From assembly GCA_965178125.1 (NCBI GenBank), contig OZ237735.1:1364001-1428000 (forward strand): DNA of 64,000 nucleotides. The letters run 5' to 3'. The notes under the pieces are model-generated. The model did not search any database. It saw only the letters and a program-made list of their open reading frames with translations, and had not been told where the DNA came from. Source of the DNA: Bilabrum cf. latius (Eukaryota). Within the stretch, counting starts at the first letter, position 1; each line of letters starts with the position of its first letter. The position numbers and the translations under genes were made by a program. This document shows, in pieces, positions 3,780 to 53,047 of the stretch.

Positions 3780-3912
3780 TTTGTCGACCGCGAAAGAGTG
3801 GAATATTCCGCTAGCTGTGTGAGTCGGTCGCCAGATTTGGTCGCAACAAGTGTCCCAGGTGCAATGGTAGAGGTACAAGGCAGTAAACAGAGGGCAGTGC
3901 TGACTGCTGCAT

Positions 3913-11904: not shown

Positions 11905-12034
11905 GGGAGGCCGGCAAAGACTTCTGTCTGTCCGTTGCAACTTTGCGGAACTTAAAAATTGCGCAGCGCCGCCGGCACTTTGTTGTGTGCGCTTTGTAGC
12001 ACCTGCTGCAGTCCCGTATTTTGTCGGCCCTAGC

Positions 12035-13395
12035 ATGGACGCAAGCGCGAGAAAGAGGTAGGCAGAGCTGTTGCTGAAAGTATGTACAGGTGCTAGTAGC
12101 CTGAGCACCGGAGAATCTGTTGAGCTGCTGAGATTGCTTCGCAAAAGTGGTCAGTCTGCTCACCACAACCATTTAGTCGCTGATATTGGATCAAAGGTCC
12201 TCAGTGGTTCCTGGCTTGGCGATGAATGTGAGGAAATCATGAATAGTTGTGCAACTAGTCAGTTTTTGAGCGCGTGAAACAGCATGCGTTACTGTGAAGC
12301 GTCGGCGAAGCATGTCCCCCATGGCTTTCATCCGCAGCTCTTTCGCTTTGTGAGCAAGTTGGGCTTGCCTTGGTTCGATGCCACAGATTATTTGCAGCTA
12401 CAGAGCTTCTCACGAAGATCAAGGAGTATGTTCCCAAGAGTTAGCGATCGGAAAGACTAGCGGTCGCCGTTACCACTGCGGTGCCCACCCCGCACGGTAG
12501 GAAGCGTACAGGCGACATCCTCGCGCAGTCCATGAGCAAGCTGGATGCCAACGTGGCAGTCAGCAGACGATCGGTAGGGGCAGCCATGGTCGGCTGCGGC
12601 GTGCCGGAGGAGTTCAAGGAACTAATCGACGTGGACATGTCCCAGCTCCCGGAGGGTACGCCCCAGCCGTCCAGGACAAAAGTTAGGATGTGCAGCCCAG
12701 GCTAGGGCGGCAGCTCTGCATCCGCTACCAGGATTAGCCGCGGCCGCGAGGAAGGCCTCGAGTTCACCTCGGATTCGATCTGCTCCGCTGACGGCGCTTT
12801 GGCTCTCAAGCGGCACCTGCAGACATATGCCGACGATCAGGCGGCATGGAAGGTACTCGCCGAGATGCAGGCCTCACAGGGCAACTACAGGGAAGCGTGC
12901 TTCTGCTTCGAAGAGCTGGTGATGCTCTCACCAGGCACGGCGCACTATCACTGCCGCCTTGCAGAGTGCCTCGCCTCCACCGGCCTGCCCGCCGACCGCG
13001 AGGCAGCGAGGAGGCACGCATCGGTTGCGGTGGAGCAGTCCAGAGGGAGGCTGCCGAGGGCGCTGGTGCTGGTAGCTGCGCTGGGGCCTTCGAGGGTCGC
13101 GCCGGAGGACGAGGGGGAGAAGGAGAAGAAGGGGGGCGAGTCCGAGGCGGCATGCGAGCTCAGCATGGCTGCACTCGAGGCGCAGATCGAGGCAGTGGAG
13201 GCGAAGGCGAGGGGACACTCCTCGCCGGCTGCCAAGGGTGCCCTGGTCTGCGCACAGGCGCTTCGATTGGCGGTGGGCGCGTACTCTGGTGCAGCGTCCT
13301 CTGCCTCTGCAGCGGCGGCAGGAGGAGAGGCTGGAGCTGCTGGCTCGGGTACTGCGTCTGCTGCCGTCCCGGCGCATGATGTGGATGAGGACTGA
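12035..13395 (+). CDS. EMC2: ER membrane protein complex subunit 2 (TPR protein)
   Basis: Motifs LGDE..LCEQV and L..HLQTYADDQAAWKVLAE...ACFCFEELVMLSP..HYHCRLAE. Intron 12228-12337 restores the frame. TAGs at 12059, 12442 and 12703; ends in TGA. Confidence 0.8.
12228..12337 (+). other. Spliceosomal intron (GT-AG) in EMC2
   Basis: GTGAGG...CCGCAG, phase 1; joins WLGDE to SLSLCEQV in frame. Confidence 0.7.
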
Positions 13396-15481: not shown

Positions 15482-18400
15482 ATGAGTGAAGGCACCAAGG
15501 GGGTCCTTGTGGCATGGACTCGAAAATTTATATCCGAAACCGGTCGGAAACCAACCAAGCACGACGTGGAAGCCGCCGGAATGCTGGAGATGCTAGTTGC
15601 AGTTGGACCGCGAAGTGCGCGGCCATCATCTGCTCCAAAACAGGACGGACGACAGAGTTCACTCGGCCCGGGTTCTTTCATTTCAAGTTAGTAGAAGACT
15701 AAGCAGCTGCGCGGTCGTGGAATCTCTCCGCTCGGTGGCACGCCTGGCAAATCATTGATGCATCGTGGAATCCTTGCCGGTCTCATTCGAAGGTAGCAGG
15801 AGCTCAGAGACAAATCGAACTCAGTATCGGTCTCAAACTAGGGATCAATTTTGGATAATCCCGCCAAGAAGGTCGCGCCTCCCTCGCTTCCGAAGCCATA
15901 GGTGATGCAGGATGCCAAGCTGGACGAACCATATAGTTCAAGCTCAGACGACGAAGCGCAAGCCGAGGCATCTTCGTCACCAGCAGCAAGGGTAGACGAA
16001 AACGACCGCTTCCCAGGCTTGAATCCGGGTTCAGCTCAGGCTACCTTGCAGGAGACCCGGGTTGCCCCTCGCGCCGGGGCCAAGTCGCAGGCTAGGCACA
16101 CAAAGGAGCACTCGAATGAGAACTACGTCAAGCTAGACCTGCGGGGGAAGCGCTGGCGCAGGCATCGATAGAAAGGAGTTATTTCAGCTAGGCGGGGAGG
16201 CTACCGATTCGCCCGATCGAACGGCAGGGGCCCGTGGCTGGGCTCGATCCCCAAGCTGGACGACAGGGCATCGCTGGCTGTGCAGGGGGGCAGCAAGCAG
16301 CTTGGGAATGAAGAGGGGGATGAAGAGGGCGAGGGCGAGGGGGATGCAGACCTGCTGCCAGAGGGATAGGACGGGTCTTCAATCGACATGAACGCCCAGG
16401 CACCTGCATCTACGCAATTTTCTGGTCCTGGGCCGTCCGCAGCCTCCTCCAGTGCTTCCTCGTCTGCGTCGTCTGCTGCAACCAGAGGCCGATCCAGTGC
16501 CGGCGCTCTGCCAGCCGCTCTCAATGACCCGGTGGCCGTGACTCCGGCATCTGAAGGATTCATTGGCGGGAGGAGCCGCGTGGCGTGGGCCCCTGAGCGA
16601 GTGCTGGCGCAGGCCTCGGCGCCCCCTTTCCCGAAGCTCGACATGGTGGATGTTGTGCTGGAGGGTGCCGGGCTGGACACGCCACCTTACCAGATAGACC
16701 GGTCAGTTGGGGGCGACGCACCGTCACTGTCGCAGAGCAGCAGCAGCAGCAGCAGCAGCAAAAGCATGGCTTACGATTCACAGCAGCAGTAGCAACCACG
16801 GACAGGAGCCGGCCAAGCCACGCCCCGTCTTCCCTTGGTGCAGCAGGCGCTGGAGGCCAGCAGAAAGCGGTCTCGGGCCCTTCGAGAGAGGGCCGAGCTC
16901 ATTGCCAGGCGAGGTGCAGCAAGAAAGTCTGCGTCCGCCGGCAGCAGCACGTTAGTACCGATGAGCTCTGGTGACCTGGCGGCGATCCGCAGGATGAGCG
17001 GCGTGAAGGAAGGCCAGGCCATCAGTCGAAGCGAGGACCCGTTTGCGGACGCAGCCATTGCGGCCGGTGGATCCGTCACAGTGAGTAAGGGGAACCAAGC
17101 CAAGGCTGTCCAGAGTGCCCCTCGAATTGCAGGCCTGCCACCCACTGGGCCGAATGGGTGCCCTATCTGCTACGGGCATCACCTGGAGGCAAAGCTTCGC
17201 ACAGTCAGCCGCAAGGGCAGGAACAAGGGTAGGAAATTCTACTGCTGCCCCTTACCCAGGGAAGAACAATGCAAATTCTTCCTTTGGGAAGACGAGCACG
17301 CGTGAGGTACTGCTTGTGGATGCATTGCTTGCCGCCACGCTCGAGACACTCTCTTTGCTCTGCCGCCCCAGTTGGACACACCCACGCGTACTGCCCTTCC
17401 TCTTTGTTTCTTACGCACACCACAGGTAGACAGCCATCCGATTGTATCGCCGTGCCGCTGACATGGCCCTTAAGAAAGACGACAAGAAGGAGGCCTACGA
17501 CTTGTACGTCGAGGTCTCCCGGCGCAAATGGATGACTCGCACGTCGGCGCAGCTTCGGCAGGAGGCAAAGAGGAGGGGTCTGCGAGCTGACCAGCTAGGC
17601 AAGCTCAAGGAGGCCTCGGACCATGACTCGAGCAGCAGCGATGACTCGGAATCCGAAACGGAGGAAAAGGAAGCAGACCTGTCCGCAAAGAAGGACGTCG
17701 TCCGTGCAGCAGCCAGCGCAAGAGCTTCACCACAGAGTGCGCCATCTCCGGCTGGACCACGCGGCAGCTTGAAGGCCTCGGGGCACCCGCAGGGCGAAGA
17801 CCAGGGCTCCAGCTCTGAATCCTCCTCTGCTTCGTCCTCTGGGAGCGACCTATCCAGCTCGGATGAGGAGGCCATCCGCGATCTGCTTCGAGGGAAGAAG
17901 CGAACCGCGGGCAGGACCCGGCTCAGGCGACGTGGGGCTGCTGGTACTAGTTGGGGTGCAAAGCGGCTGAGACAGCGAGTTGTCGGAGCCTCAGGAAGCC
18001 AGAGGGCAAGCAGTCAGAGCATGGATGATGAGTCAACAGACAGCGGCGGCTGGTCCCCCGACGAAGACGTGCCCCTGTCGTCGTTGATTCCAGGGGCAGG
18101 GAGCAAGACCAAGAAGAAATCCAGAGCTCGGCAGTCGGGAGCGACAAAGAAGCGGCGTGGACACGGCTTGAGCACACTTCGGAAGGCCGATCTGGTGCTG
18201 CTGCTGGCTCAGAGCGACGCCAAGTGGTCGGTGCGAGAGCGAGGTATCCTAAAGCAGTAGAACGGCGGCAGGATCGGGGCCCGCAAAGACGACCAACCTG
18301 ATTTCGAAGTGGAGACTGAGCTACCAGCTGCAAAGAAAGCGCGCAAGAGCAGCAACGGCAACGATTCAGGGAAGGCCGGAGAATCGAAGGGTGTTGCAAC

Positions 18401-21400
18401 CGCGGATGACGAGGACGGAGACCACCTGGCCAGCGTGCTTGGCGAGTGGCAGGACGAGCTTGAAGCCAGCGCGCGAGCACCAGAGACGGGAGATGTGGTG
18501 CTCGACACGCTCAGGAGAGAGCTGCGCTACGATGCGTTCCGCGGACAGTAGGAGTGGGTAGTGCGCAGGGTGCTGGCGGGACAGTCCACGCTGATGGTCG
18601 CACCGACGGGCAGCGGAAAGTCCCTGACCTACCAGCTGCCGGCCCTGCTGCTTCGCAGGAACCTGGGCACGAAGACCAAGGGCTCATCCCGAAAGACTCG
18701 CGCCGGCATCACGGTGGTAGTGTCCCCGCTGGTGTCTCTCATGGAGGACCAGATGGCCAAGCTGCCGCCACCGCTGTGCGGCGTGGCCCTGACAGGCAGG
18801 CAGCCAGCCAAGGCGATAGCGGAGACGCTGGCCAGCCTCCGAGACGGTGCGGTGCACGTCATGTTCGTGAGTCCAGAGAGGCTTCTGTCGCCCGCGTTTG
18901 CCAGGCTGATGCGCAGTGGGACAGCCGCACCGCACGTGTCGCTAGTATGCATCGATGAGGCCCACTGCGTGACGGAATGGGGCCACGACTTCAGGCCAGC
19001 GTACCTTAGGCTGCGGTCGGCGTGCACACACATCTTCGGCGATGCGCCCCTGCTCGCCCTCACGGCGACTGCCACGCCGACCGCCGTGTCCGGCGTGCAG
19101 TCCGTCCTCGGCATCCCTGGTGAGGGCGTGTGCCTCTCAGGCTGGCACCGGCCCAACCTGAGGCTGACTGCCTCCAGCGAGGAAGGCGACGCGAGGGCCC
19201 GGGCACTCGTTGACATGATGACGGACCCGGCGTCTCCACTGGGTCCTACGCGTCCGAGGCAGGTGCGCAGCGGCATGCCGAAATAGGCGGATCCAGCCAA
19301 AGGCCCGTGCGTCATCGTGTACACGTCAACGCAAAAAGAGGCAGAGATTGCAGCCGATCTGCTCAAGCAGTCTGGCGTCCCGGCTGCCGCTTACCACGCA
19401 GGCATGTCGGACAAAGCCAGAAATTCCACGCAGCAGCGATTCATGTTCGGCAGCCTGCGCGTGGTGTGCGCGACCGTTGCCTTTGGCATGGGGATTGACA
19501 AGTCGGACGTGCGAGGAGTGGTGCATATTGGAGCGCCCAGGTCGGTGGAAGACTACGTGCAGTAGGTGGGTAGGGCAGGCCGCGACGGGGCACCGTCGTT
19601 CTGCCACGCTTTCATCGGGACAGAGGAGCTGCTCTTGCACAGAGCCAGGACGGCAGGGGCGTCCGGTGGTGGCATCGTGTCGGGGCGGCAAGTGCTGGGT
19701 CTTGTGGCCGCGCTCGCTGGGGCGGCAGAGTACGCTGCGGACGCCGAGGCCAGCTCCGGGCTGTACCAGAGCGACACCGATGATGCTTCGGGTGACGGCG
19801 TTCCAAACCCGACGAGAGGTCGTGACGTGGCAGTGGATGTCTCCTGGTGCGGCGCCGCTCTGGACCTGAGGCCCGAAGCTGTGGACACGGTGCTGGCGTA
19901 CGCAGAGGACGAGGGCGTGGCTGTACATGCGCCATCCAGGCACGGTGTATGCGACGTGGCACTGCGTAGGACTTCTCCCTCCTTCGTCTTCAAGTCATCT
20001 GGAATCTTGAGGTCGGCGGTGTGCGGAAAGCCGCCCCGAGCAAAACAAGGAGCCGCTGCTGGCCGCACTCACGTGCTGATGGCGCGCTGGCAGGCCGCCG
20101 CCCTCCTCGCCCTTGTGCAGCTGGAGTGTATCCCCTACAATCCAGTGTCTGAAGCCTCGCTCACGTTCGGGCCCAGCGACGATGGCAAATCTGGCACGTT
20201 CGGGGCTGCCAGAAGAGCCCCAGCCGCATCCAAAGACGCGGCTGGGCTCGGTGCGGCTACCCAGGAGAACAGGGTGGCACAGGCGCTGCGCACCGAGGCA
20301 ACAGCATTGCTGCTGCAAGATGACGGCAGCGGTTGGACTCCCGAGCAACTGCTATTGCAGGCCATGCAGAGCGTCACGAGTAGGGTGTGGAGAAACGCGA
20401 GCGGCTGCTGGGTGGTGCGGGTGTTTTTGAGTGAGGCGATGGCGCTTGGCGGCATGAGGCTATCCGAGGTGCAGAGGTACTTGCTTCAGCTGCAGTCCAC
20501 GGGACAAGTGGACACCAGCTGGAGCGGATGGAGCATCGGGGTGCTGCTGCAGCACCCGAGCGCGTGGCGCAGCACCATGGAGAAGCGTGATCGCGAGCAG
20601 CAGCTGCCCCAGCACGAGGACCAGATGACTGCGGAGCAGTTCGACCTGCTCTGCCAAGAGACCGGGGAGCACGCCCCTGGGCCAGGAGCCAAGGCAAGCG
20701 CCGGGAGCAGCAAGACGTCTCCGTCGATGCAAGGAGTAATGGCACTTGCGAGGCGCATCTGGGGCAGGATCTCTGTGCTGAGCAACCGACGCGTCAGCAG
20801 GGTGGAGCTGGCCTGGGGTATGCTCCGCAGAGCCACTACAAACAACTGGAAGGAAGCAATGGGGATGACCCGGCCGCGAGCGGTGCCGGCCTCCTCAGCG
20901 TCTGCACCCACTGCCACTGCCACTGCCACAGCTGTTGGTGTTGGCAGCGAGGACGAGAGCATCGAGTGGAGCGATGGCGAGGACGAGGACCTCGGCAGCA
21001 TCATCGGGTCCAGCGACGAAGGTGAGGACGACGACGATGAAGACGAGGAAGCGCCTGAGAAACGCACCAGGAAAGTGCCAAAGACAACCCAGCCAGCCAG
21101 CAGGGAGCTGACCGCGGCAGAGCGACTGAGCGCCGCCCTCGATGCATATTTTGAAGGCAAATTCGACAGGGACGGCGCGAGCGAAGCGGCAAAGCGGCGC
21201 ATGGAGGCTCTCGTGCACGAGGCGCCTCTCAAAAAACTGCCACAGTAGGGAGCCAGGGGGATCAGTGGCAGCAGCGAGGCTACGGCGTTGCGCCGAGACG
21301 CCCTGCAGGTGCTGCAAGAGCTCAGGCAGGCAGCCTCCCACAGGGATTCGGGCATGCGCGCCGCCCTCGAGCAGAGCACCGCTCACAAAGTGCGTGCTGC

Positions 21401-22028
21401 GCAGGTCAAGATGGACACACTGGATGCGGGGATCCGCTTGCCCACACCAGGGAAAGCAGGCGAGGACAGGATGGTGCCCCAAGTGGCGTGCGAGCGGCTC
21501 CTGTCGTCGTTGCAGCTGCCCGTGGGGGCGCCTGCTTGTGGGGCGGTGGCTGATCGCTCCGGCATTGCGGCTGCCACCGCTACAGCCAATGTGGCTGCTG
21601 CAACCGCCACTGCAGTGGCGTCGGGAGAGGCTGCTCCCGGGTCCCTTCTAGCTGCGGGTCTGGCTCGAGCCATTGGGGCGTGGACAGCTGCAGGCCGTGC
21701 CATGCCTCGTCCTCGCGGGATGTCAACGTCTGGGCTGCTCTCGTTCTGCCTCTGCGCCACGGCTTCGCCGCAGGCCGTGGCTCGCGTCATGCAGGGGGTT
21801 CCGTCCGTGTTGTTCCCTGCGAGGGAGTGGGGGGGTCATCTGCACTGGGCCAGGGCGAGAGAGTATCGGTTTGAGGAGGTGGCGGGGCTGGGGGCGGAGG
21901 CAGAGGCCAGGCTGGATGAAGGCAGAGTGATGGATGAGCTAGGGATGCTGGAGGGCAATGAGGGGGGAGAGAGTTAGGGGGGGGAGAGTTCGGGGTCATC
22001 TTCATCGGCAGCGGGGTCTTCCTCTTGA
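15482..22028 (+). CDS. RECQL4: RecQ4-type DNA helicase (Sld2-like N-terminus, GRF zinc finger, RecQ helicase core)
   Basis: N-terminal W..KF...GRKPTK.DV and NENYVKLDLR. GRF finger CYGH...VSRKGRNKGRKFYCC....QCKFFLWED. Helicase motifs FRGQ*E, APTGSGKSLTYQLP, IDEAHCVTEWGHDFRPAY, TATA, ATVAFGMGIDK, YVQ*VGRAGRDG. About 15 in-frame TAGs; intron 17302-17425; ends in TGA at 22026-22028. Confidence 0.9.
16736..16759 (+). repeat. (AGC)n trinucleotide microsatellite encoding poly-Ser within RECQL4
   Basis: About 8 tandem AGC units, seen directly. Confidence 0.8.
17302..17425 (+). other. Spliceosomal intron in RECQL4
   Basis: GTGAGG...pyrimidine tract...CCACAG, phase 2; removes an in-frame TGA and shifts into the helicase frame. 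Confidence 0.75.
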
Positions 22029-22217: not shown

Positions 22218-23252
22218 TCACGCCTGCATGAGCCCCATGTCCTGGAGGCGCTTCTTGAGGACGGCCTTGTCAGCCGCCGGCATGGCCACAGAGGGCAGCC
22301 TGGGGGGGCCCAGCTCGATCCCGGAGATGAGGGTGCCGATCTCCTTGCCCACGTCATAGTTGCCCCACTCGGGGTTCTGCAGGAGCTCGGCAACCAGTCG
22401 CCCGCAGAGCGCCTGGATGTCCCGTGCCTTGTCCAGGTCGCCCTTGTTGAAGGCATCGATGAGGTCGTTCATCTGCCTGCCGATGTAGTTGTAGGTGCTC
22501 CCCACGGCGCCCTTGATGCCCATGGCCAGGGCTCCGAGGAGGGCCTCGTCCCTGCCGAACACGAGGTCGTACTTGCCTCCCACAGCAAGGTGCGAGAGCT
22601 GCAGCTGGTTCAGGTTGTAGTCGGTGAACTTGATGCCCGCAAGGTTCTTGACCACGGGGCCGTCCTTGCCGGCCTCGTTGGCCGCGATCAGGTCGGTCAT
22701 CTTAAAGCCCGACTTGGTGGGACCTGCCAGCGACATTTGTGGGATGTGATAGTACCAACTGGGCAGTTGGACCGCGTCCATGACGTACTTGAGCTCGGCC
22801 AGCAGCTGGTCCACGGTCTGCGGACGGAAGTAAGAGCCTGGCATCTGCACAATGCCGGTAGCGCCGATCCGCTCGGCGTGCTCGGCCAAGGCACGCGCGC
22901 TCTGGAGAGCATCTGTGCCGACGTGGATGTATATCTTGAGGCCAAGTCCGGGGCCGTGCTTCATCCACTCCTCAGCAAGCAGCTGGCGCTCCTCCTGCGT
23001 CAATTTGACGCTTTCGCCTGTAGTCCCTGCCACGAGCACGTGCTTGACTCCCGTGTCTGCCAGCCACTTTGCCTGGGCCGCAACCGCGTCATAGTTGACT
23101 CGGCCAGGGTCTGTTGCGTTGAAGGCGGTGTATGCAGCCGCCATGAGACCTTCCATTCTTACAAATTGGAGGGAATCTGCCTGTGCTGCGGCCTGATTAG
23201 CGCACACGGCCGCCGTAAGGGCGCATATTGCTGAAATTACTGCAGCTCGCAT
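22218..23252 (-). CDS. N-acetylneuraminate lyase / DHDPS-family aldolase with a predicted signal peptide
   Basis: Motifs GTTGES, YYHIP, GIKFTD (Schiff-base Lys), FGRDE, GAVGSTYN. Hydrophobic N-terminus MRAAVISAICALTAAVCANQAAA. No internal TAG; ends in TGA. Confidence 0.85.
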   Translation of the reverse strand: MRAAVISAICALTAAVCANQAAAQADSLQFVRMEGLMAAAYTAFNATDPGRVNYDAVAAQAKWLADTGVKHVLVAGTTGESVKLTQEERQLLAEEWMKHGPGLGLKIYIHVGTDALQSARALAEHAERIGATGIVQMPGSYFRPQTVDQLLAELKYVMDAVQLPSWYYHIPQMSLAGPTKSGFKMTDLIAANEAGKDGPVVKNLAGIKFTDYNLNQLQLSHLAVGGKYDLVFGRDEALLGALAMGIKGAVGSTYNYIGRQMNDLIDAFNKGDLDKARDIQALCGRLVAELLQNPEWGNYDVGKEIGTLISGIELGPPRLPSVAMPAADKAVLKKRLQDMGLMQA

Positions 23253-23450
23253 TGCTTTGTCAAACTTCTTAAGTTTCGAACCTGCCTGTGGCATCGGACT
23301 CCGACACGGATCCTCGTCGATATCCAATAATCAGATTAGTCGCAGAAGTACACGTAATGTTTAGCGACATGCCATAGGTGAAGATGAAGAGAGTCGCCAA
23401 ACTCCGATGAAAGTATTGTTTACTCAAGTGGCATTCATTGCTTTTGCGAC

Positions 23451-35809: not shown

Positions 35810-36344
35810 ATCATGTGGTTGTTAGTTGCGCATGTTTCACAGCTGAACGACTGCGCGCCGAAAATATGATTTGCCTCTGGATTCAAACGTTACTATGGAA
35901 TTGTACAGTGCTGATATGTATAACTGAGCGGCCGGAATCCAATTTTCAACTCCCACGAGCGCGAATACCGTTTCGCACAGTACAGCAATTGCTATAGAAT
36001 ATATATAACAAGTATGGTAAGGCAGCACCGCAGATATATGCAGCTTCATCTATATTTGGGGCGGCTGTTGTACATGCAATAATTGAAATTTGGATTGCCG
36101 TTCGACAGCGAGATCTACCGCGCCTTATCTCTTTATCTCGCTTTTGGGTGCTGAATATTCGTGACAGAAGGGCGTCAAAAGTTGTCACAAGAGTATTTTA
36201 GCTTTTTGTTCTTCGAGCATGCAATGGCTAGCGGGCCTTGGTGGAGGACCTGGTACAGCCGGGCACTTGCCGGTCTGGTGGGACAAGTTTGGCTGCATGG
36301 CGCACACTTCCACGGAAATTCATGCATTACTTACCTATTCGCAG

Positions 36345-38031
<1,687 letters not shown>

Positions 38032-40793: not shown

Positions 40794-41530
40794 CGCAGAA
40801 CTGCTGGTTTGGTGGCCGTGGGGGTTCCCTTGCTTGTTGCGCTGCAGTGCTTGCACCCGAAATGGACAATGTTTGGTTTTGGTTGTCAGCACTTCCGCGA
40901 CTCCGTTTGGGCACCATGGCAGATCGATAGCGAGCTGCAAGAGAAGAATTGAAGGCGGGGGCGTTTAGGTAGCTGATGGTAAGCTGAGAACAGGCTCACA
41001 AGGCTATGTCTAGGTCGAGAACGTGTCGCAATAATTTCGATCGGTCCGGCTCCATCTCCCATCTTTTTGCGCTTTCGCAGTACGTCAGAATCAAAGTAAA
41101 GAAATAGGATGACCCTGAGTCTGCATCTGCGGCTGACATGGCTGCACTGCAAACCATTTCAGTCCCGGCAAAACTGGAGAGACCGAGTGGACTGAGCGAC
41201 TACAACTATTCCAAGGATGTCCAGATGCTCAGTGACATGGAAGACACCTTGACACGACTGAGCAGATAATAGTGGGACTGTCTCGCGCGTGCTGGTGCAG
41301 CTGTCTGCATGGAGGTTGCGTGTTTTTCTTCAGGAACTTGCCTTGTCAGTATCTCTATTCTCCTCATGTATTTGAGCCAGTTTGGGCGTCGTGTCGGCGC
41401 ATCATAATACAAGAATCAAGACAACACTAATCTATCGGATTCGTACAAAGCATGAATTCGACAAGGAGCAACGGATTGCAGTTGCGGTTTCGCGCACCAT
41501 CCCACTGCCGAATCATATCGTGCAGGCAAA

Positions 41531-42799
41531 ATGAGCTTCCGACCGAGCCTGCTTTGTATTCTCTTAGCTGTCGTGACATATTAGTCTGACTCTCATCCTG
41601 TCTCGCGCCATGTACAGTCCTTGAAAACTCCTGGAGTGCTCATTGTGAACCTAAACCGAGATGTTGAGCGCGGAGAAGGCACGCGCATGGCTCTGCAGAA
41701 GGCACTGCAACCCAGAAGTTTGAATGAAGGAAGAAATCCAGTTAGCCCCTCCTGCGACCTGGCTCGCTTGGTGTGGTCCAGTTCTTCAGACCCCATGCGG
41801 ATGCTGCCATTCACCGCTGAAGACAACACAACTGCGTGCATGGCGATATCTAAACTGAAGGACTCCCTTGCCAAGAGTGATGCATCAGATATGGAAGGCA
41901 AAGTCTTGCGGTGGCCTGCTACGGACGCAAGCCACCCGGTGGGCCGACACATGTTGCTTCGGCAGGCAGACGTTCACACCCGATTCATGATTTAGAACCA
42001 TGGGGTGGTGGTGCGGGGTTCCGATCACGAAATTGATTCGATGGGACCGTTAGGTTGCTCGTCAAGTCACTACTAGATCTGGTCTGTGATGGAAGACCTT
42101 CAGATCCCCTACGCCATCGTGGTGGAGGACGACGTCCGGCCGACGGGGCGGCTGCAACGAGATCTGGCTTCCATCGACAGCGAGCTCGAGTCTTTGCACG
42201 CATACCCAGAGAGGTTTGACATGCTCCTGCTTGGCTGGAGGTTCTTGCACTCAAGTCGCACGGCTGGGGAGCTCGGCCCGGAGGGCGAAGTGCGCGCCCC
42301 TTCGGCTGGCAGCAGCACAGGCATGCGCCGCGTGCTGGGGATCTGGCACGGGACGCATGCGTATTTAATCACGCTGAGGGGTGCCAAGCGATTGCGCGAG
42401 CTGATGAGGAGGGAAGGGATCGGGGAGCACCTTGACCACTGGGCGGGGGAGGCCAATGCCGTGGAGGAGGACATGGTCGTGCTCGCTCCTGCAAAGCAAG
42501 TGTTTCGCACCGTCGGAGCGAGCACCCTGGGGCACGGGCTCGGCTGCTTTAGCTGCAAGTACAAGGATATCATGCCGTACGTGTTGATGGTGCTGGCGTT
42601 GACTTGGACTTGCATCTTGGTCGAGGCAGTGTGCGGCCTACGGGCCTGCGGGTCATCCATTGCAGCAGCGGCGCGGTCTGGAGTATCACTGGTCTCCGGC
42701 GCTGCAGGCGGTGGGCCGGCCGCGGTGGGCTCGATCGCGGCACGAACGGGTGCAAGCCGCTTACCGCTGCCCGGATAGGCTAACAGGCATGCGTAGTAA
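41531..42799 (+). CDS. Glycosyltransferase family 25 protein with signal peptide and C-terminal TM helix
   Basis: Motifs VLIVNLNRDVER, GPLGCSSSHY*IW, YAIVVEDD, DMLLLG, GTHAYLITLRGAKRL, HLD. In-frame TAGs near 41582, 41993, 42074, 42776 and 42794; first non-TAG stop is TAA at 42797-42799. Confidence 0.82.
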
Positions 42800-42882
42800 A
42801 AGGCAATCTAGATCAGATGATGCACTCAACATCAAGCTGTACTCCAAGCATCATCATCAACCACTCGCATGACGCTGCGCGA

Positions 42883-45800
42883 TCAGTCGTCTTTCTCGTC
42901 CTCATCCACGAACAGCACGTCCGCCACAGCCACCAGGAACTCCGACCCCGGCTCAAGCCCGAAGCGCTGCAGCGCAACGCTCAATTCATCATCTGGAATC
43001 TCGTCCAACACCGCCGGCGAGAAACGGCCCGTCGATCGGGTCGCCGAGGAGCCCAGCTGGCCGCTATCGCCGAGCGCGCTCCCCGCCTCCCCCTCCCTTG
43101 CCATGCCGCCACGAGAGGGCGTGCTGCTGCTGCTGCTCCCAGGCACGATTCGCCGAAGCACCTTCCTAACCTGCCCGACGACGACAGAGGGCCAGGAGCC
43201 CCCCGCCATGGTGACGGCCTGGTCAGCGCATCGAGCCCGGAGAAGCATTCTCGTGGGCTTGCCATTCGCACCCGCTGCCGCCGGCTGCGCGCCGGCCCTG
43301 CGGTCCTGGATGGCCTCGTACACGAAGGCAGGCACACTGGCCTTCGATGACTCGGAGCTCCGGTCGGACTCGCCCCTCGGCCGGCCGTCTCCACCTGCCT
43401 CCTGCCCCGCGCCACCTTTGCCCTTGCCCTTGCCCTTGCCTTTCCCCTTGCTGCCTCGCCCCTTCTTGCCTCGGGAGTCACCCTCATGCTCCTTTCGCTT
43501 GCTCTTCCGGCCCGCTGACACCATGGTGTGGGCCTCGGCCGGGTGAGACATCAAGGACCCGCTGTACCCGGCGGCCTCGGGCACGTGCCTCGCATGGAAC
43601 ACCACGACGTCCTGCGGATTCACAGAACCGTACAGCACCGCGCGCTCCCTGCGGTCCTGGTCCAGGGCGATGATCCTGTTGTTCAGGTCCACGTTGGAGT
43701 GCTGCAGTGCAGCGAGGTACCGAAGGACCTTGCGAAGCTGCTCGACAACACGCCCCGGCCGCAGGTTCGCAAGACCGGCAACGTCTCGACGGGTGGTGGG
43801 GGTCTGTGACTTGGATCGTCTCGCCGAAGCGCTTCGGCTGCCGATTGCTTCAATGTCAGTGCTGATCACCCTGGCATCTGCCGACTATGGGGCACCTGCT
43901 TGGGTCTTCTCGGTCGGCTTCGGAGTCGAGCTATCCGCCAGCACCAGGCCGAGTGGGCCTGGCGTGCTCGCTCCATCCTCTCCTTCGGCATCCGTGTCGT
44001 CGTGGGAGTCCACATCAAAATGCGAAATCATGCCCAGCCCCTTAAGAAGCGCCTCGGGCACTTCCCCCTCAGAGTGTGAGGGGCGCAGAGTGGCGGCGGC
44101 AACCGCAGCAGCAGTGGCAGCGCCACCAGCCCGCCGACCCCCTCCAGCCCCAAGCCAGCGAGGCGCCCCGCCTGCGATACCACCCTGCGCTCCGTGCACC
44201 TGCAGCGCGTTTTCAGCAGCGTCCACGGCCCTGGAGTCGCGCAGCAGAGACAGAACCTTCCAAAGCGCCTGCCCTGCGGTCAGCTTCCCCCGGGGCTAGG
44301 AATTCGACAGAAGCCGCATGGCTTGGCCGCCCTCGATCCCGTGCCTAGCAATGCTCCCAGCACTGGCCCCGTGCTGCAGCCTACGGACCACCCTCGAGCC
44401 CCGATCGGCCGAGGCGGCGGACATCGATCGACCGATCGGCCCGCCCGAGTCTCGCACCGCATCGTCTGACACTGGAGTCGTTGCCGCCGCCGGTGAACCC
44501 GACCTGGACACGGACTCCGACGCAGCGCTGGAGCTGCTGCCGTGAGGCGCCAGAAGCCCAGTGGGCAGTCTTCGCTCGGAGCCGACCACGGGCGATACAA
44601 CGAAATCGAAGACGCTGTCGTCCCCCGTGTCGCTCGCGTTCAACGAGGACGCAGACTCGCCGGCCGTAGCCTGGGGTACCTGGATGGACACGCCAGCGGG
44701 CAGCCCCATCCCCGCCGGCACCGGTGATGCCGCGAGAGCAGTCCCGGCGGGCACGATGCCAGGCTCCCCTGCTGCCCCTGGTTGAGCACCGTGCGCTAGC
44801 TGCGCCTCATCCGCGTCGTCGTATCCTACACCCGCGAGAATGTGTTCACTGAGCGAGTAGCCCGCGGTGGGGATGCGGTTCGAGGTCCACGGGAGCGTGT
44901 CGGGCAGTCCTTCCGGGCTGGTCGCCAGCGAGTCTGGCTGTGCTGCGGTGAGTCCCTGCCCAAAGCCATCCTGATGAGCTTGCTCCAGCAGCGGCGGCCC
45001 TGCTCCGGTCGGACTGGAGGTGCGAGAGGCCGCCAGCACGTGGCCGTCCAAGTATTCCTTCAGGGCCTCTTCTCCGAGGCCTGACCCCTGCCCATACCAT
45101 TGCGCCATCTGTGCCAGCTCTGCCTTAAGACCGGCCACCTCTGCCTCAAGGCCGAGCTTCCTGACCATGCCATTGGCAGCCAAGTCCTCCTCCTAGTCCA
45201 GAGTAACCTCGGCCAGCCGCAGCTCTCGCACCCTTTGCCCTGCGGAGTCATCACTGCCATCGCTTACATTCTGCCGGTTCCCGTCGACCCTTCCATCTTT
45301 CGGGCTAGCAGAAGCGGATGCTCGATCCTTCTAGCCTACACCAGCACTGGCGCTGGCATCGACAGCAGCAGCCGAGATGGCGGGGTCGCTGACCTCGTCC
45401 TACGCGTCTGCTTCAGGCCCAGCCACGAAATCAGCAATGTTGTCGATGCGCGGGAGCTTGGACACGATGCCCTCCCAGCGCACCTCGAACACGGGCGCCT
45501 TTTCCTCCATTCCAGGGAACAGGCCCGCCGGCAGCACCCCCCCGTGCATGCGGTCGAAGTGCGCGCGGCGCTGCGACTCCCTCGTCCGGGCACGCTCCAG
45601 GCTGTCCCACACGTGCTGCACCTGCGCGACGTAGTGCCGCGCGAATGCCCTACGCCGAGATACCTCGCGCAAAGCAGTCGTGTAGGCAGCCGGCATGCCT
45701 CTGACCCGCCGAATGTGCGCGACCGCGCCCCTCTGCATCTTGTCTGCCTGTGCCAGCTGCTGCATCCTCCTGTTCAGCGAGGCGATCTCGCGGTGGAGCC

Positions 45801-47527
45801 CGCTCACCTTTGCCATCCCGCGCCTGAGACGATCCAGGACGAAGCTCTCTGCCGCGCATATGCCCCTGGCCCTAGTCCTGAGCGGGTCATCGTCCGCCAT
45901 GACCGCGGGCAGCAGCTCGTCCTCTAGCTTCTTCTGCAGTGCGTCAAGGGCATCCCTCGAGTCCGACCCGCTGGGCGAGCCGGACCCCGCGCTCGCCTGC
46001 TTCGCCAGTGCTGCGATGTTTGCGTGCAGCAGCGTCACAGCCTCCTCGCTGGCACGCAGCGCCTCGTCAGCCGCCTGCCAGCCCACCTCCGCCCTGGATT
46101 CCAGTGCCTGCACCCGCTCTCTGATGCCGGTTGCAACGGCCTGTGGCACGGGCGGCTCCTTGGCGGCTTCTTCGCAGCGCCGGAAGAACTCTGTGACGTC
46201 ACTGTGCAATGACTTGGCGAGGGCCGCCAGCCTTGTCTCGCTGGAGGTGCACTTCTGCGCCCAGTCGAGCGTGCCGCGCTCGTCCACGTGATCAAGCAGC
46301 GTGCCAGTTCCGACTGCTTTGGACTCATCACGATCTGTGCCTGCGGCGGCAGCGGCAGCGGCTCGTCGCTTGAGCTTCTTCCTGTGGAGCCTGGCAAGTT
46401 CCGGGTGCAAGGTGACTTCCGCGAGCCTAGAGCAATACTCGGGAGCCCTTGACAAGATCTGCTTCCTCTCGGCGCTTTCGCGGCCAAACCGTCTATAGAA
46501 CGCCTCGAAGCGTCTCAAGCTGCCTGCAGCTACGTCAACAAGGTTGGACATGGCCGCGTCCAGCGCGCGAGCCCTCACACCGGCCCGCTGCGCCGCGGCC
46601 ACGCCCCCATTCACACGCTCGCGGAGCACTCTGGGCGCCACTTTGGCCATCCTGTGCCACCCCACAATCCTTGCAAATCTAGAGCGCATGGCGTGGAACA
46701 CCGCAAGCGCAGGCCCCTGCAGCTTCTCCGCGGGCGCGCTCGGCCCGCTTGCACCAGAGTGCCCTGCACCCTGCGAGCCACCGGTTGCCGGACCAGAGCC
46801 GCCTTCGCCAGACCCCTTCGATCCAGAGTGATCGGAGGAACCCCCCGGGTCGGAGCCGCTGGCCCCGCTGCTGCCGCCCCCTGCGATGGCGGCCGATAAC
46901 CTGGCTGCAGCCAGGCGGGCTCGTTCCGGCAGCTCGCCATCGAGCGCGCGCAGCAGTCCGAATGGTTCGTCGGGGGTGTCGCGCAGAGGTTGGGACAATG
47001 AGTGCAACGATTCTCCTCCTATCGACTTGAGCTGCTCTTTGGTGGGCCAAAAAGTCGAGCTAGGCGCAGGATCGAACACGCCACCCGTGGATGGTGCCGA
47101 TTCAGAGCTGCCAGATGCCAAAGATTTGCGGGCAGCATCGATCTCTCGCCTATCGTACAGAAACATATTTCGTCTCTGCGCATCGACTCGCGCCAGCTCT
47201 TCTTGGATGTCTGTATCTGGGCGGTCGCGAGGATGCTTGTACGGCTTCCCGATCAGCACGATCTAGCTGGCAGGCGGAACTCCGCATTCCTTTGCGAGCA
47301 AGCTCTTCAGGTCCTTAATCCTGTAAGTATGGTAAAGATTGTGCGATGAATGGCTGAATGACAACTGGAGCAGGAGCAAGATACGAGAATCCTAGTCATT
47401 GATCTGTGTCTTACTTCCGGATCCCTGCAAGGTTGCAAGGTCGCTCCAAGCCCGTAAAAGCAACTTCTACGGTCTATCGGGACTCATTTTTGGTTGCAAC
47501 TCCGGCACGTTCACCGGACTTGGCCAT
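42883..47527 (-). CDS. ATG11: Autophagy-related protein 11 / FIP200 (RB1CC1)-like scaffold
   Basis: Ubiquitin-like N-terminus IKDLKSLLAKECGVPPAS*IVL. ATG17-like MPAAYTTALREVSRRR...ESQRR..F...HGGVLPAGLFPGM. Coiled coil and claw-like C-terminus (DVVVF...VVVGQV...FGLEPGSEFLVA). Intron 47321-47414. TAGs include 47263, 45400, 45331, 45193, 44296 and 43885; ends in TGA. Confidence 0.78.
47321..47414 (-). other. Spliceosomal intron in ATG11-like gene
   Basis: GTAAGA...TTACAG on the minus strand, phase 2; restores the frame. Confidence 0.7.
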
Positions 47528-47725
47528 AATTTGCCAATATTGTCGCCAATATTTCAATGCGCAATGAACGAATCGGCATCGAACCTGGACGAAGAACGGA
47601 ACCACCACACGGCGAATGCGCGGCGACCGCGGTGTCGGGTGATGAATCCGCATTCGGCACTAGCATATTCACATTGCGTTTCGCTGGCGATACTACCATC
47701 CATTATTGTAATGAGCTAAGCAGGT

Positions 47726-50700
47726 ATGGCGGGTGCAGGCGAGTGGAGGCCAGATAAGCCCAAATTGGACCGAATCTTTGCGCTTATTCGTGATGCCACC
47801 AGCCCAGGAAAGGCAGGGGAGGAGCACAAGCAAGCCGCTGCCGTGTCAAGGCTCCGCGAGCTATCTGAGTAGACACCTGATGCGGGCTTGTATGCTCTCT
47901 TGGTTTTGAGATCTCCTCCAGCTCCAAACGCTGAGTCTGCTGACCAAATGGCATGCAGCATGGTGCAGGCGGCCATCCGGAGATCAGCGAGAGACCGTGC
48001 CTCTGTTCTACCGGAACTTGTGAGACGGGCAAAGTTGGTGTGCCTGCAGGAGTCTGTTGTGAAACCGACCCGGCCCCACGGACCTCGGGCGATGCAATCA
48101 CTCGCTGCAACTGTAGCTCTCCTCGCACGAAGCGGTGGGGTAAACACCTGGCCAGAAGCTGTCCACGCATGCAGAAATGGCCTTAAGCCCACGGCACCGC
48201 CAGGACTGCGGCAATTATCTGCGTCGCTGGCCTCCATGCTGCTCGAGGACGCGAGCGCAGCAGCTGCCGGCGAGTAGCAGAGCTACGGAGCCGCGAGCGC
48301 CGCGCCCGGCAGGAAGTCTCGCTGGGGCCCATCAGTGGGGGAACAGCAAAGCGAGGGAGGATTAGAGGCGGCGCTGCCAAGGCTCGCCACCGCCATGCCA
48401 ACGCTAGACACGACCGGGCTAGACGGACCAGTCGGCGCAGTTCCAGGGTTTGACAAGCTGCTTGAGCCGCCCGGCCGCGAGTTCAACCTCGGTCCGAGCC
48501 TGAGCCCGAGCCTGGGATCGGGTCCCGCCGCCGGTGACGGCAGCTTCTCCGGGGACGAGTACGTCTCTGCTGTGGAGAGGGGGAGGCTGGCGGTGCAGTC
48601 ACTCGGGCCCCTGGCACTCGACCTGGCCCGATGGGCCGAAGCCGGGTGCCAGGCACTCAAGACGAAAGGCAGCAGCGCCGGTGCTGGGGCTCCCGTGAGT
48701 CTGCCGACGGGTGTCTCTGCAGACGAGGCGATCGCGATGCTCCCCGTTGCCTTGGAGGCCATCAAGAAGTGCCCCCACGCGGTGGTGTCCAGCCCAGAGC
48801 TCAGGGAACACATCGTCAAGATGGTAGGCGGGCTGGCCCTGTGCTTGAGGGCAGCTGCGTCGGCCGCCAAGTCTGGGTTCTCGGCCTCGGGCCCGAGAAG
48901 CTCGCAGGGCAACCAGGTGCTGTCGGCTGGCGTGCACGCCGCCGGGCTGCTCAAGGAGGTCGTGCACGACCACGGGAGGTAGATGTGGCCATCGATCGGG
49001 CACATCTGGGACGGCGTTGTAGCCGCCCTGCAGCAGAACAAGTGCGTCCAGCTGCAGAAGGCTGTCATCGAGATCTGGCTGGAGGTGTGGGTCACCGCTC
49101 GGTCTGGGTTTGGGGGAGATGAGGTGCGCGCGCAGACCCAGGCAATGGCAGGCCGGCTGTCTCCCTTGCTCGTGCCCTTGTGCATGCTCCACGAGGAAGA
49201 CGAGGCGGGCGGTCACCTGCCCACCACGGACGTTGCAGATGCCCGGGTCCCTGACACGCTTGCTGACCTGCACCCGTCCTGGAAGCACAGACTAGAGGAG
49301 ACATCAGAGGGCGGAGCCACGGGTGGTAGTTTCATGGGAGGAGGGGATGCAGCCATGCAGGACGTCGACGACGGTCTCAGCATAGACGCTGCTGCAGCGT
49401 GCGGGGCGAGTACGGAGAGCGGCGGGCTGATGTGGACCCTAAGGCGCAGTGCGGCCCTCGGCCTCGAAGCGGCAGCCTACGCCGGTATGAAGGATGCCTT
49501 GGCGCCCATCATGCCGATCATTGCCAAGGGAGCGGCATAGATGGAGAATTGGAAGAGACGCGAAGCCTGCGTGCTGTGCGCGGGCATCGTTGCGCCGCCC
49601 TTGGGGAAGGCACAGGGCTACTCGCCCGCCGTCGACGGCTTGCTCAAGCGGGTGCTGCATCTTCTGCGGCACGACGCCCAGCCTCTCGTTAGAAGAGCGG
49701 CTGCCTGGGCAGTAGCACGCGTCGCCACATCGACTCTGGCAACTGCCGCAAGCGACGCTCGGTTCGAAGCCAACGCGGCTGCCCTTGAGGCAGCCAGGGA
49801 CGGAAGCGCGGCGCGCGGCATGAGCTCGTTTGCGACTGCAGCGACTGCAGCGGTGCCAGAGTCACGGCGGTCGACCCAAATCAGGCAAGCTGTGGACGCC
49901 TGTTTTCGCGGTCTCATCCAAGCAATGGGAGACCGCAACAAACTGGTGTAGCGAGGCGTGATTGCGTCCCTGCAGTCGTGCCTGCAGCAGGTCAGCAGCG
50001 AATCCTCCGAGAGCGTCCTCGTGCCAGCGCTCATCACCGGCATCCAGAAGGGCCTGGCCTCGTACCAGCTGAGGTCCTACCTGGCGACCTGCAGACTGGG
50101 CACCGTCATGTGCCTCGTGTACGGTAGGGGTGACCGCATGCGGGAGGTAGGCAGAGCTTGGCTTCCCGAGCTTCTCCGGCGATGGGGCCTCCTGAGTCGA
50201 AGCAACGCGTCCGTGGGCGCCTCGTCCCAGCTGCAGTCCGGTCCGCTTCGAGCCGCTTACGCAAAGGTGCTCGGGCCTGGGGGGCCTCCTGGTGCCGCCA
50301 TGCCCGTGCCTAGCGCGCAGTAGGTGGCTCGATACGCGCTGATGTCAACAATGGCGGCGGTGGTCGAGGCGTGCGGCGACTCGGCCGCTCCCGTGGCCCC
50401 GCAGCTCTCCGCCCTCGCCTGCTTGGCTGCTCACGACGAGCTGTCGCGATACGAGCGGGCAATGGAACAGGGCCGAAGCAACGGGTTGGCTCGGGTACCC
50501 TTCCCGGCGGAAGACTACGTACGGTCGGCGCTGCGCCTGCTCTCGTCTTGTGCCCGGGCGGCGAACGACGGAGCCGGCTCGCCTCCCGGCTCCGGTGCGT
50601 TTCTCCCCGCAGTCGACCAGCCCGACGTGTTTCGGCTGCTGCCGCGGACCCTGAGCCACGCCAGCGCCAGCATCCGCACGGCTGCCTTCCGGCTGGCCTC

Positions 50701-51412
50701 CAGTCTGATGAGCTCTTGCGCGGCGAGGACCCTTGGCAGTGCTCGAGGCATCACCAAGTCGCTGGTGGCTGCCATGCGCGCCACTGCGGGCAGCAGCGAG
50801 GTAGCCATGGCCACGAGTGCGGTGGCAACTGCCTGCAAGCTGCTTAGAGTTGCCAGGCGAGATGACCGCACGCTAGCCCAGGAAGTGGCCGGGGAGCTCG
50901 CCCCACCGCTGCTCGCCAACGTGAAGTCCGGTGGGCTGCTGCAGTCGCAGCCCATCCTGCTGCAAGCGCAGGCAGAGGCGATAGCGTGGTGCTGCGTGTG
51001 CGCGCCAGCACGAACAGCAGCGTCCATGCGTCCCGAGACACTGGGGCTCGTGGCGTTGCACGGCACGGGGATGCAGGCCCTGTCCCTGTCCTCGAGCGAG
51101 ACGCCTGCAGGTGAGCTGAGGGAGGTGACAGCCAGGGGCTGCATGGCGGCAGTGACTGCCAACGAGAGGCTGCTTCAGCCGCAGGTCGGTCCCAGCCTGG
51201 CCATGCTGGTGTACATGTGCCACCAGCAGGTGCCTAGGGCCAACAGCCCTGGGGTGCTTGAGCCGCCCACATCAGGGTGTATTGAGGCTGCCAATGCGTT
51301 GCTGCGGAGGCTCAAGGCAGCAGCCAGCGGGATGGACGGCTTGAAGCGGCTGCTGGCCCGAATGCCGGAGGACCAGCGGGACTTCTTGCTGAAGCTCGCG
51401 GCACCGATGTGA
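47726..51412 (+). CDS. Divergent transportin-1 (karyopherin beta-2)-like HEAT-repeat protein
   Basis: Motifs WRPD...IFALIRDATSP, WTLRRSAALGLE, WKRREACVL..G.VA, PLVRRAAAWAVAR and DRNKLV*, matching TNPO1 WKPD, WNLRKCSAAALD and DSNKRVQ. Six in-frame TAGs; ends in TGA. Confidence 0.75.
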
Positions 51413-51541
51413 CCCTAGCAAAATGAGTAGAATTATTCACGGATCTATTTTATCGCAAGGTCAGTCGCACAAATGTCAAAGCCCCAAAACACGGGAACGC
51501 GCCGGAAACGGCACGGCTGCGATACCCCCCATGCACTTGGC

Positions 51542-53047
51542 TCACGACCCTCCGCCACCTGTCTTGCCCTTCATCTCTCCAGCGAGCTTGTCCGCCACTG
51601 CCCTGGCTCCCTTGGGGTGGTAAGAGGAAGCCTCCTTGAGGATCTCCATGCGCATGGCGTCGTCCGAGTCCATGCCCTTCTCGAAGGAGAAATCAAAGGT
51701 CTCTTTGCACACTGGCTCGTCATCGGGCGAGTGCAAGGACGCCAGGTAGGGGTGCGCCAGGGCCTCGTCCACCGAGATGCGCTTGGCGGGGTTGAAGGAC
51801 AGCATCCTGTCGAGGAGGTCGAGGGCAAGCGGGGAGGCGCCCGGGAAGATCTTCTCGAAGGGCTGCTTGGGGTAGTGGCTGTGCCGCTTGATGAACTCCC
51901 TGGCCCTGGGGTTGGTCACGAACTCGTAGTCGTCTGGCTTCGGAGCGCCCAGCTTCTTGAAGATGAGCTCCAGCTGGTCCATGTAATTCCTCCCCGCAAA
52001 GAGGACCTTCCGTCGCAGCAGCTCTCCCATGATGCAACCCACGCTCCACACGTCCGCTGCCACGTCGTACTTGCAGTCCAGCATGATCTCCGGGGCGCGG
52101 TACCAGCGCGTTACCACGTAGGCCGTCATGTCCAGATCGTCGTCCACGCCGCGGGCCAGACCGAAGTCGCACACCTTGAGGTCGCAGTTCGAGTTCACGA
52201 GGATGTTGCTCGGTTTCAAGTCGCGGTGAATCACGTTGGCGCTGTGCATGTACTTGAGCCCCCGGAGAACCTGGTAGACAAAGTACTGGACGTGATCGTC
52301 GGAGAGAGCCTGCTTTGAGTGAATGATTCTGTGCAGGTCCGTCTCCATCAGGGCCGTGTACATGTAGATCTGGTTGAAATCAGACGCCTTTGGGCATTCC
52401 ATGTAATACAGCGAGATGAGGTTCTCGTGGCCCTCAAAGTGCTTCATGAGCTTGATTTCGCGTACTATCCGAAGAGCATCGACCTTATCACGGAATACGT
52501 CCGGAATCTTCTTTACCGCCAGCCCAGCGCCGGTTTTTGTATCTTTCACCTGACTGCAGACATGTATGATAGCTTTTATGACGAAATACTCGCGGTGGCA
52601 GCTCACAGCAAGAATAGATACCACTTCAACGCACCGGCCAATGCACAGTAGATCAGGAAGCCTCGTTTGGAACCTTCGCAGGCGACCATTGAAACTTTAT
52701 GGCTACATGTATAAATTAATTGCTAAGTAGCAACTGCTCCAAGGCAAGCGGCCGGCACAAACCCCAGCGGATGACCCAAACGGTACTGTTGCACAATGCG
52801 CAGCGGCGAGGCAGACCTTGCTACCTGTGGAGCGGCAGCGTAAAAATCATTTGCTCACGCTACAACGCCATAAGCTCCCTTTCCAAGCTACTTCTCGTAC
52901 TTGAAGCGACCGTCGATGCTGCGACACAATTTCTGTGGTGCGTACGGGGTCGTGAATCGTTAACGTATTCAGCACAGCCGGCTGCTCGTATACCATAGCT
53001 CACTCAAAGGGCTCTAATTTCTTCGCGCCTGAAGCAACAGAAGCCAT
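51542..53047 (-). CDS. Mitogen-activated protein kinase (TAY activation motif), 3 exons
   Basis: Exons 53047-53004, 52918-52859 and 52553-51542 give MASVASGAKKLEPFDIDGRFKYEK*LGKGAYGVVAQVKD..AVKK..LRIVREI..HRDLKPSN..CDFGLAR..MTAYVVTRWYRAPE. TAG at 52888; ends in TGA. Confidence 0.93.
52554..52858 (-). other. Spliceosomal intron 2 of the MAPK
   Basis: GTGAGC...CTGCAG on the minus strand; joins the Gly-rich loop exon to the kinase body. Confidence 0.8.
52919..53003 (-). other. Spliceosomal intron 1 of the MAPK
   Basis: GTGAGC...TCGCAG on the minus strand, phase 2. Confidence 0.7.

Follow-up and report, generated by a model that had tools for sequence, protein, structure and literature searches.

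To our knowledge, reassignment of UAG and that of UAA nearly always go hand in hand. The rare exceptions inform the debate on how genetic codes evolve through transfer RNA (tRNA) wobble and through the specificity of the release factor eRF1. One of them is the fornicate Iotanema spirale (Panek et al. 2017), which reads UAG as glutamine (Gln) and retains UAA and UGA as stops, UAA being the predominant one; a T32G substitution in the GTS motif of eRF1, together with a UAG-specific tRNA, has been proposed as the mechanism (PMC5304391). The ciliates Hartmannula sinica, Trochilia petrani, and Protocruzia tuzeti likewise read UAG as Gln and stop at UAA (McGowan et al. 2024, PMC11687900). UAA closes 87-98% of the genes in those phyllopharyngean genomes in which UAG is reassigned, UGA ends at most 13% of the genes in any genome of that data set, and heavy use of UAA has been argued to lock it as a stop (PMC11687900). 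In the code of NCBI table 6, known from Tetrahymena and other ciliates, Hexamita, Streblomastix, Amoeboaphelidium, and ulvophyte algae, both UAR codons (UAA and UAG) mean Gln. Other codes in which the two are decoupled include those of the rhizarian exLh (UAG as Leu), Scotinosphaera (UAG as Ser), and the ciliate PL0344 (UAA as Lys, UAG as Glu) (PMC5304391, PMC11687900, PMC10553269), and in Condylostoma, Parduczia, and Blastocrithidia the same codon is sense within genes and stop at their ends (PMC5304391). Here we analyze a 64-kb stretch of contig OZ237735.1 (Bilabrum cf. latius, assembly GCA_965178125.1, positions 1,364,001 to 1,428,000; hereafter the window) and, within it, the end of a GT25-family glycosyltransferase gene, the only one in the window to terminate at TAA. 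These genes probably use a code that matches NCBI table 15, with UAG as Gln and both UAA and UGA as stops, in a GC-rich, intron-poor eukaryote whose nearest named relative is Cafeteria.

The window has a guanine-plus-cytosine (GC) content of 62% and is intron-poor, and we read it as eukaryotic nuclear DNA. Under the standard stops its longest open reading frame (ORF) has 892 codons; reading through TAG yields ORFs of 4029, 3583, 2746, 1648, 1557, and 1229 codons. Sixteen genes were counted (most of them listed in Table 1), leaving 4,851 b of non-coding DNA; the Pfam matches are to eukaryotic families, and the domains are intact in the TAG-bearing genes. The 19,819 in-frame codons of the 16 genes comprise 120 TAG, 165 CAA, and 577 CAG, with neither TAA nor TGA among them, and TAG is present in 13 of the 16. 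A tally made before introns were trimmed (15 ORFs, 19,562 codons) gave 122 TAG and again no TAA. Fifteen genes have a complete 3' end in the window: 14 end with TGA, the GT25 gene with TAA, and none with TAG. UGA, found at 14 of these 15 ends and nowhere in frame within genes, acts as a terminator. The first-pass annotation, made from the letters of the sequence, had counted thirteen TGA ends and had seen no in-frame TAA; the near-exclusive use of TGA holds, with 14 ends in place of the 13 counted then, and the absence of TAA extends to all the codons tallied here.

UAG is an ordinary glutamine codon in the genes of the window. The clearest case is the RecQ4-like helicase gene, whose segment at 18399-20000 contains three TAG codons (18549-18551, 19284-19286, and 19560-19562). 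The first sits on the glutamine of a FRPGQ-type motif and, in PDB alignments, pairs with a glutamine of human RECQL4 and of bacterial RecQ structures; all the database homologues aligned at this column have glutamine (119 of 119), apart from one gap. The best database match to the segment, P0001, from a Logan assembly, is 97% identical and has glutamine at the first two of these TAG sites, and its standard-code ORF ends in ...EDYVQ, immediately before the third. At this third site glutamine occurs in Cafeteria roenbergensis (P0002, 49% identical) and in two further close homologues, P0003 and P0006. The giant kinase gene provides a further case, TAG 31532-31534, in a column that is glutamine in four of the five PDB alignments shown and glutamate in the fifth. 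Since glutamine is the sole residue that fits both the invariant RecQ column and the near-identical relative P0001, we conclude that UAG stands for Gln, in agreement with the sense reading of the first-pass annotation. The match to Cafeteria also suggests that the host is probably a Cafeteria-related organism of stramenopile affinity; the TAG-free DHDPS protein, compared with a protein atlas, gave its family only and no lineage signal.

TAG accounts for about 14% of the Gln-type codons overall, and its share reaches 42% in the GT25 gene, the highest among the genes of the window, with 5 of 12 Gln-type codons (TAG at 41582, 41993, 42074, 42776, and 42794). The three most conserved genes, those for RuvB-like 2 (RuvBL2), the MAP kinase, and the DHDPS family protein, are at the other extreme with 0%, and higher TAG use seems to go with low conservation or expression. 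Along the genes TAG is evenly spread (11, 13, 12, 11, 18, 11, 14, 11, 7, and 8 codons in successive deciles of gene length). It is not depleted near gene ends, where the last 20 codons hold three TAG against 1.8 expected and the last 20-50 codons show no depletion either. It is found 1, 7, and 17 codons ahead of real stops, the first two of these distances applying to the GT25 TAA, and in-frame TAG also occurs 3' of real stops, at +2, +4, and +6 codons. Since none of the 15 ends is TAG and there is no depletion near the ends, UAG does not behave as a context-dependent stop. None of the sequencing runs listed for this DNA is recorded as RNA; the RNA evidence was taken from contigs of three runs presumed to be such, from which spliced contigs could be recovered. 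Across TAG codons, the spliced contigs show no difference from the DNA. One of them (X5 record 13) joins 43454-47319 to 47414-47545 with 0 mismatches and spans the seven TAG codons of the ATG17-like gene, so TAG is present in the mature messenger RNA (mRNA) and unedited.

In contrast to TAG, TAA is missing from the reading frames. Its count of zero is not circular, because the large ORFs (4029, 3583, 2746, 1648, and 1557 codons) are unchanged when TGA alone is used to delimit them. TAA within the gene ORFs so delimited is limited to 5' untranslated regions (UTRs; 1384, 47324, 47333, and 47717), to introns established by the RNA contigs (36634 and 52699), and to the GT25 end. Position-specific base frequencies predict 94 TAA codons, against the 0 observed in frame, and the +1 and +2 frames of the sense strand contain 39 and 54 (19,803 codons each); the non-coding DNA has 7.1 TAA per 1000 positions. 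The share of A at the third position is 0.222 for CAR, 0.263 for GAR, 0.216 for AAR, and 0.18 for TTR, and ranges from 0.114 to 0.447 across the other 14 NNA/NNG pairs. With about 120 TAR codons, the probability of finding no TAA is 3.7e-14 at an A share of 0.224 and still 2.6e-6 at 0.10. UAA is thus not a usable sense codon in the genes of the window, and GC bias is not the cause of its absence in frame. As GC bias cannot account for the missing TAA, UAA is decoupled from UAG, which is what the first-pass annotation had proposed when it set these genes apart from the UAR=Gln code.

The same pattern was found in a metagenome contig, L079 (1-16353), which came from a scan with the RuvBL2 protein and was matched as its paralogue RuvBL1. 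L079 has 55% GC, is intron-poor and eukaryotic, and carries genes for Topo VI-B, ARPC2, SGT1, a GH18-like protein, RuvBL1, and a citrate synthase fragment, together with a 940-codon ORF (ORF940). Its 3,855 codons include 34 in-frame TAG and no TAA (P = 1.4e-6 for a CAA share of 0.33). Seven genes end with TGA and one, ORF940, ends with TAA, which is followed by a TGA after 9 codons. The database fragment P0175, 77% identical, carries glutamine where L079 has one of its TAG codons, and its own end falls immediately before a second such codon. In a column of ARPC2 with conserved histidine (136 sequences), glutamine is the second commonest residue (6). Judging from these codon counts and alignments, L079 probably uses the same UAG=Gln, UAA-excluding code as the window.

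In the mechanism that we propose, UAG would be decoded by a tRNA-Gln with anticodon CUA. The C34 of this anticodon would be unable to pair with the A of UAA, and UAA would therefore not be captured by the same tRNA. This is in line with published accounts, in which a tRNA with anticodon CUA reads UAG alone and one with UUA would read both UAA and UAG (PMC11687900, PMC5304391). In parallel, eRF1 would have lost the recognition of UAG and kept that of UAA and UGA; that it needs to tell UAG from UAA and UGA agrees with published hypotheses (PMC5304391). UAA would in this case be a legitimate stop, rarely used because GC pressure favors UGA, and the GT25 gene would accordingly end at the TAA at 42797-42799.

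The end of the GT25 gene deserves a closer look. In its frame, 42770-42820 reads ...CCC GGA TAG GCT AAC AGG CAT GCG TAG TAA AAG GCA ATC TAG ATC AGA TGA, just as the first-pass annotation had described the final GCG TAG TAA (42791-42799) and the TGA beyond it. The genes of the window contain no in-frame TAA other than the one at 42797-42799, which has a sense TAG (42794-42796) directly 5' of it. The first in-frame TGA past it lies 7 codons downstream, at 42818-42820, and is either a chance or back-up stop or, if TAA is read through, the true stop. The first-pass annotation had left two options for TAA, stop or very rare sense codon. The first option is favored, because the sole in-frame TAA stands at a gene end, because a TGA TAA tandem is present at 1698-1703, and because of the position of the codon: by rough arithmetic, a lone sense TAA would have a probability of ~0.005 of lying among the final 7 codons in one of the 15 genes, and two sense TAA codons, counting the window and L079, would both fall within the last 9 codons with a probability of ~8e-5. 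The rare-sense option fares poorly by comparison, and the likeliest role of UAA is that of an infrequent stop.

Several observations weigh against the table 15-like reading or parts of it. ARAGORN detected no tRNA genes in the 64-kb window. The lineage placement comes from one named match, to Cafeteria, at 49% identity and in one gene. Some TAG codons fall in columns where glutamine is not the rule: the third RecQ column is glutamate in the other 116 sequences, mostly bacterial RecQ; a second giant-kinase TAG (X99) aligns with serine, histidine, or glutamate in a variable column; and the TAG columns of the GH2 glycosidase gene, also variable, align with tyrosine and glutamate in distant bacterial enzymes. 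The window has a single TAA-ended gene, with an in-frame TGA 7 codons on, and both TAA-ended ORFs, GT25 and the L079 ORF940, have a TGA 7-9 codons later, so that TAA may be leaky or may not be the real end of these ORFs. For comparison, a further TGA lies within 10 codons after the stop in 2 of the 14 TGA-ended genes of the window, and in 4 of 21 when L079 is pooled with it; two TAA stops each followed by TGA within 9 codons would have a probability of ~0.04 by the same rough arithmetic. This figure is itself mildly low and would be compatible with a leaky UAA whose back-up stop is under selection.

Taken further, the same facts lead to the best-surviving alternative, in which UGA would be the sole working stop and UAA, unassigned or barely functional, would be avoided throughout, having no tRNA to decode it and being poorly recognized by eRF1, the TAA of the GT25 gene being slow or leaky and backed by the TGA behind it. 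The TGA codons that follow both TAA ends speak for it, as do the 14 of 15 ends that are TGA, but we consider it unlikely. An expressed gene would not tolerate a genuinely unassigned codon in frame at its end, the tandem at 1698-1703 places TAA behind a TGA, and UAA is still a stop in every published UAG-only code compared (PMC5304391, PMC11687900). Moreover, GC pressure alone would give such rarity, and 15 ends allow a TAA share of up to ~30%, a sample size at which a few per cent of functional use and none at all are inseparable. A ciliate-type code with UAR=Gln (table 6) is very improbable; TAA would then mean Gln too and be missing through GC bias and small sample size. The genome is indeed GC-rich, and in all frames TAA is less frequent than the other two stop triplets, but CAA, GAA, AAA, and TTA still make up 18-26% of their A/G pairs, and the probability calculated above for a share of only 10% is already prohibitive. 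The 39 and 54 out-of-frame TAA against none in frame, the L079 count (CAA share 33%), and the location of the single in-frame TAA at a gene end point the same way. Finally, nothing specific to the window speaks for a context-dependent UAG, an option raised by the existence of ambiguous codes (PMC5304391). That UAG is sense inside genes and stop at their ends, or that the TAGs are artifacts of pseudogenes, assembly errors, or RNA editing, is hardly credible given the lack of TAG ends, its undepleted presence 1, 7, and 17 codons before real stops, the identity of the spliced contigs from three runs with the DNA across TAG codons, the CAR-encoded glutamine of the close relative P0001 at TAG sites, and the intact Pfam domains.

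The other features of the window are collected in Table 1. Pfam families found in addition to those listed there include a DnaJ-TPR protein and the GH2 glycosidase, which has a PAN domain; the GH2 gene is the sixteenth, its 3' end lying beyond the edge of the window. The giant protein encoded at 3913-12144 (-) has a MYCBPAP domain near its N-terminus and a phosphoglycerate kinase (PGK)-like domain at its C-terminus, and may be a flagellum-associated PGK fusion. GT..AG joints in the RNA-like contigs correspond to the RuvBL2, ATG17-like (-), and MAP kinase (-) introns of Table 1 and to 40978-41079. The 1228-codon gene is covered by an RNA-run contig (X5 record 14) collinear over 47662-51413, and in-frame TAA is confined there to the 5' UTR or intergenic DNA before the ATG. 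A poly(T) loose end of the RNA-like contigs at 51433 gives the poly(A) site of the MAP kinase gene. Long antisense ORFs such as the TAA-ending one at 1413-3047 (+) were rejected as genes, as they have no Pfam match and a garbage-like composition. Homologue searches with the 1228-aa protein and with the GT25 protein returned no matches, and an exact look-up of ten standard-code ORF fragments from the window found 0 of 10 in the collection.

Table 1. Features of the window discussed in the text (positions are those of the window).
Feature	Coordinates	Strand	Evidence	In-frame TAG	End or other detail
Membrane-protein gene	1701-4070	-			TGA 1701-1703, then TAA 1698-1700 in tandem
MYCBPAP + PGK-like giant protein gene, 2743 codons	3913..12144	-	Pfam	16	TGA
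RecQ4-like helicase gene	17115..22028	+	Pfam DEAD/Helicase_C, PDB alignments	7	TGA
DHDPS / N-acetylneuraminate-lyase family gene	22218..23327	-	Pfam PF00701, E 2.1e-31	0	TGA
Giant membrane/kinase protein gene, 4028 codons	23723..35809	+	Pfam	37	TGA
RuvB-like 2 upstream introns	36016-36343 and 36631-36754	+	GT..AG joints, three RNA-like runs
RuvB-like 2 (TIP49), last exon	36757..38031	+	Pfam PF06068, E 3.8e-129	0	TGA
GT25-family glycosyltransferase gene	41531..42799	+	Pfam PF01755, E 4.6e-10	5	TAA
ATG17-like autophagy gene	42883..47545	-	Pfam PF04108	7 (spliced mRNA)	TGA 42883-42885; intron 47320-47413
Gene of no recognized family, 1228 codons	47726..51412	+		6	TGA
MAP kinase, last exon	51542..52552	-	Pfam	0	TGA; intron 52554-52858
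Giant WD40 protein gene, at least 3582 codons	53250..63998	-	Pfam	19	TGA

The GT25 (+) and ATG17-like (-) genes are convergent, and with 83 b between their stops (42800-42882) the two 3' UTRs necessarily either overlap or are very short. A single contig from the RNA-like runs covers 42416-43408 and crosses both gene ends; assembled contigs of this kind cannot reveal where the transcripts end at this junction. At its other extremity, the GT25 mRNA apparently has a ~450-nt AT-richer 5' leader (41080-41530), located 3' of the 5' UTR intron (40978-41079), and this leader holds several TAA triplets and short upstream ATGs.

The metagenome scan with RuvBL2 returned 80 loci, the best of them 80-87% identical and none from the organism of the window, and the in-frame stops in these loci come mostly from TAR-reassigned, low-GC (ciliate-like) contigs. 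Low-GC RuvBL loci such as L015, L020, L041, L056, L057, and L071, among others, show TAA as well as TAG in frame, frequently at glutamine or glutamate columns, as expected of ciliate-type UAR codes; the window differs from them in this respect. One locus with the same GC content as the window (L044, 1258 b, 62% GC) has a single in-frame TAG, at codon 112 of the RuvBL2 match, which aligns with a lysine of the window protein; it could come from another TAG-sense organism in which the codon has a different meaning, or be an error. The scan with the GT25 protein gave 238 pattern matches and no confirmed locus, and ARAGORN, run on 27 fetched metagenome loci, found no tRNA except a tRNA-Phe in L038.

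The decoupling of UAG from UAA is itself already known from Iotanema and ciliates. By contrast, a stramenopile-like host and UGA-dominated termination for a UAG=Gln code appear to be unreported in the literature searched. We found there no nuclear stop reassignment for a stramenopile or a bicosoecid, in a search that covered subscription journals thinly and whose leads concerned organelles or other taxa. We advance only tentatively, and with some doubt, the stronger proposition that this is the first nuclear stop reassignment in a stramenopile (Cafeteria-related) and the first UAG=Gln code whose termination is carried by UGA instead of UAA, with UAA almost vacated: never sense, rarely stop, and possibly leaky. 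If true, such a nearly vacated UAA could be an intermediate between the standard code and either a UAR=Gln code or UGA-only termination, and L079 hints that the code may be common to a wider environmental clade. A GC-rich lineage with UAA infrequent in either role, stop or sense, would separate the dominance of UAA from its retention, and suggests that the decoupling is maintained by the decoding machinery (the CUA tRNA and eRF1) and not by heavy UAA usage. On the practical side, gene callers using the standard code break these genes at every TAG, as illustrated by the P0001 ORF, cut directly before the site of a TAG in the window, and table 15 is advisable for annotation.

Compared with the published codes, the window shares with those of table 6 the reading of a standard stop as Gln and the use of UGA as a stop, but whereas in them both UAA and UAG mean Gln, here UAA is excluded (0 of 19,819 codons). 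As in exLh, Scotinosphaera, and PL0344, UAG and UAA differ in meaning; unlike in these, the amino acid is Gln. In-frame stop codons are also found in Condylostoma, Parduczia, and Blastocrithidia, from which the window differs in that no gene ends with TAG and TAG is not avoided near the ends. The resemblance is closer to Hartmannula, Trochilia, and Protocruzia, where UAG is spread along genes as a synonymous Gln codon, UAA is not sense, and UAG has no dual role, but the proportions of the stops are reversed in the window, its GC content is 62%, and the UAA lock is weak. Iotanema, too, has reassigned UAG alone, and to Gln, has no in-frame UAA or UGA, and is not a ciliate; however, it is a metamonad with UAA as its main stop, whereas the window ends 14 of 15 genes with UGA and probably belongs to a Cafeteria-related stramenopile.

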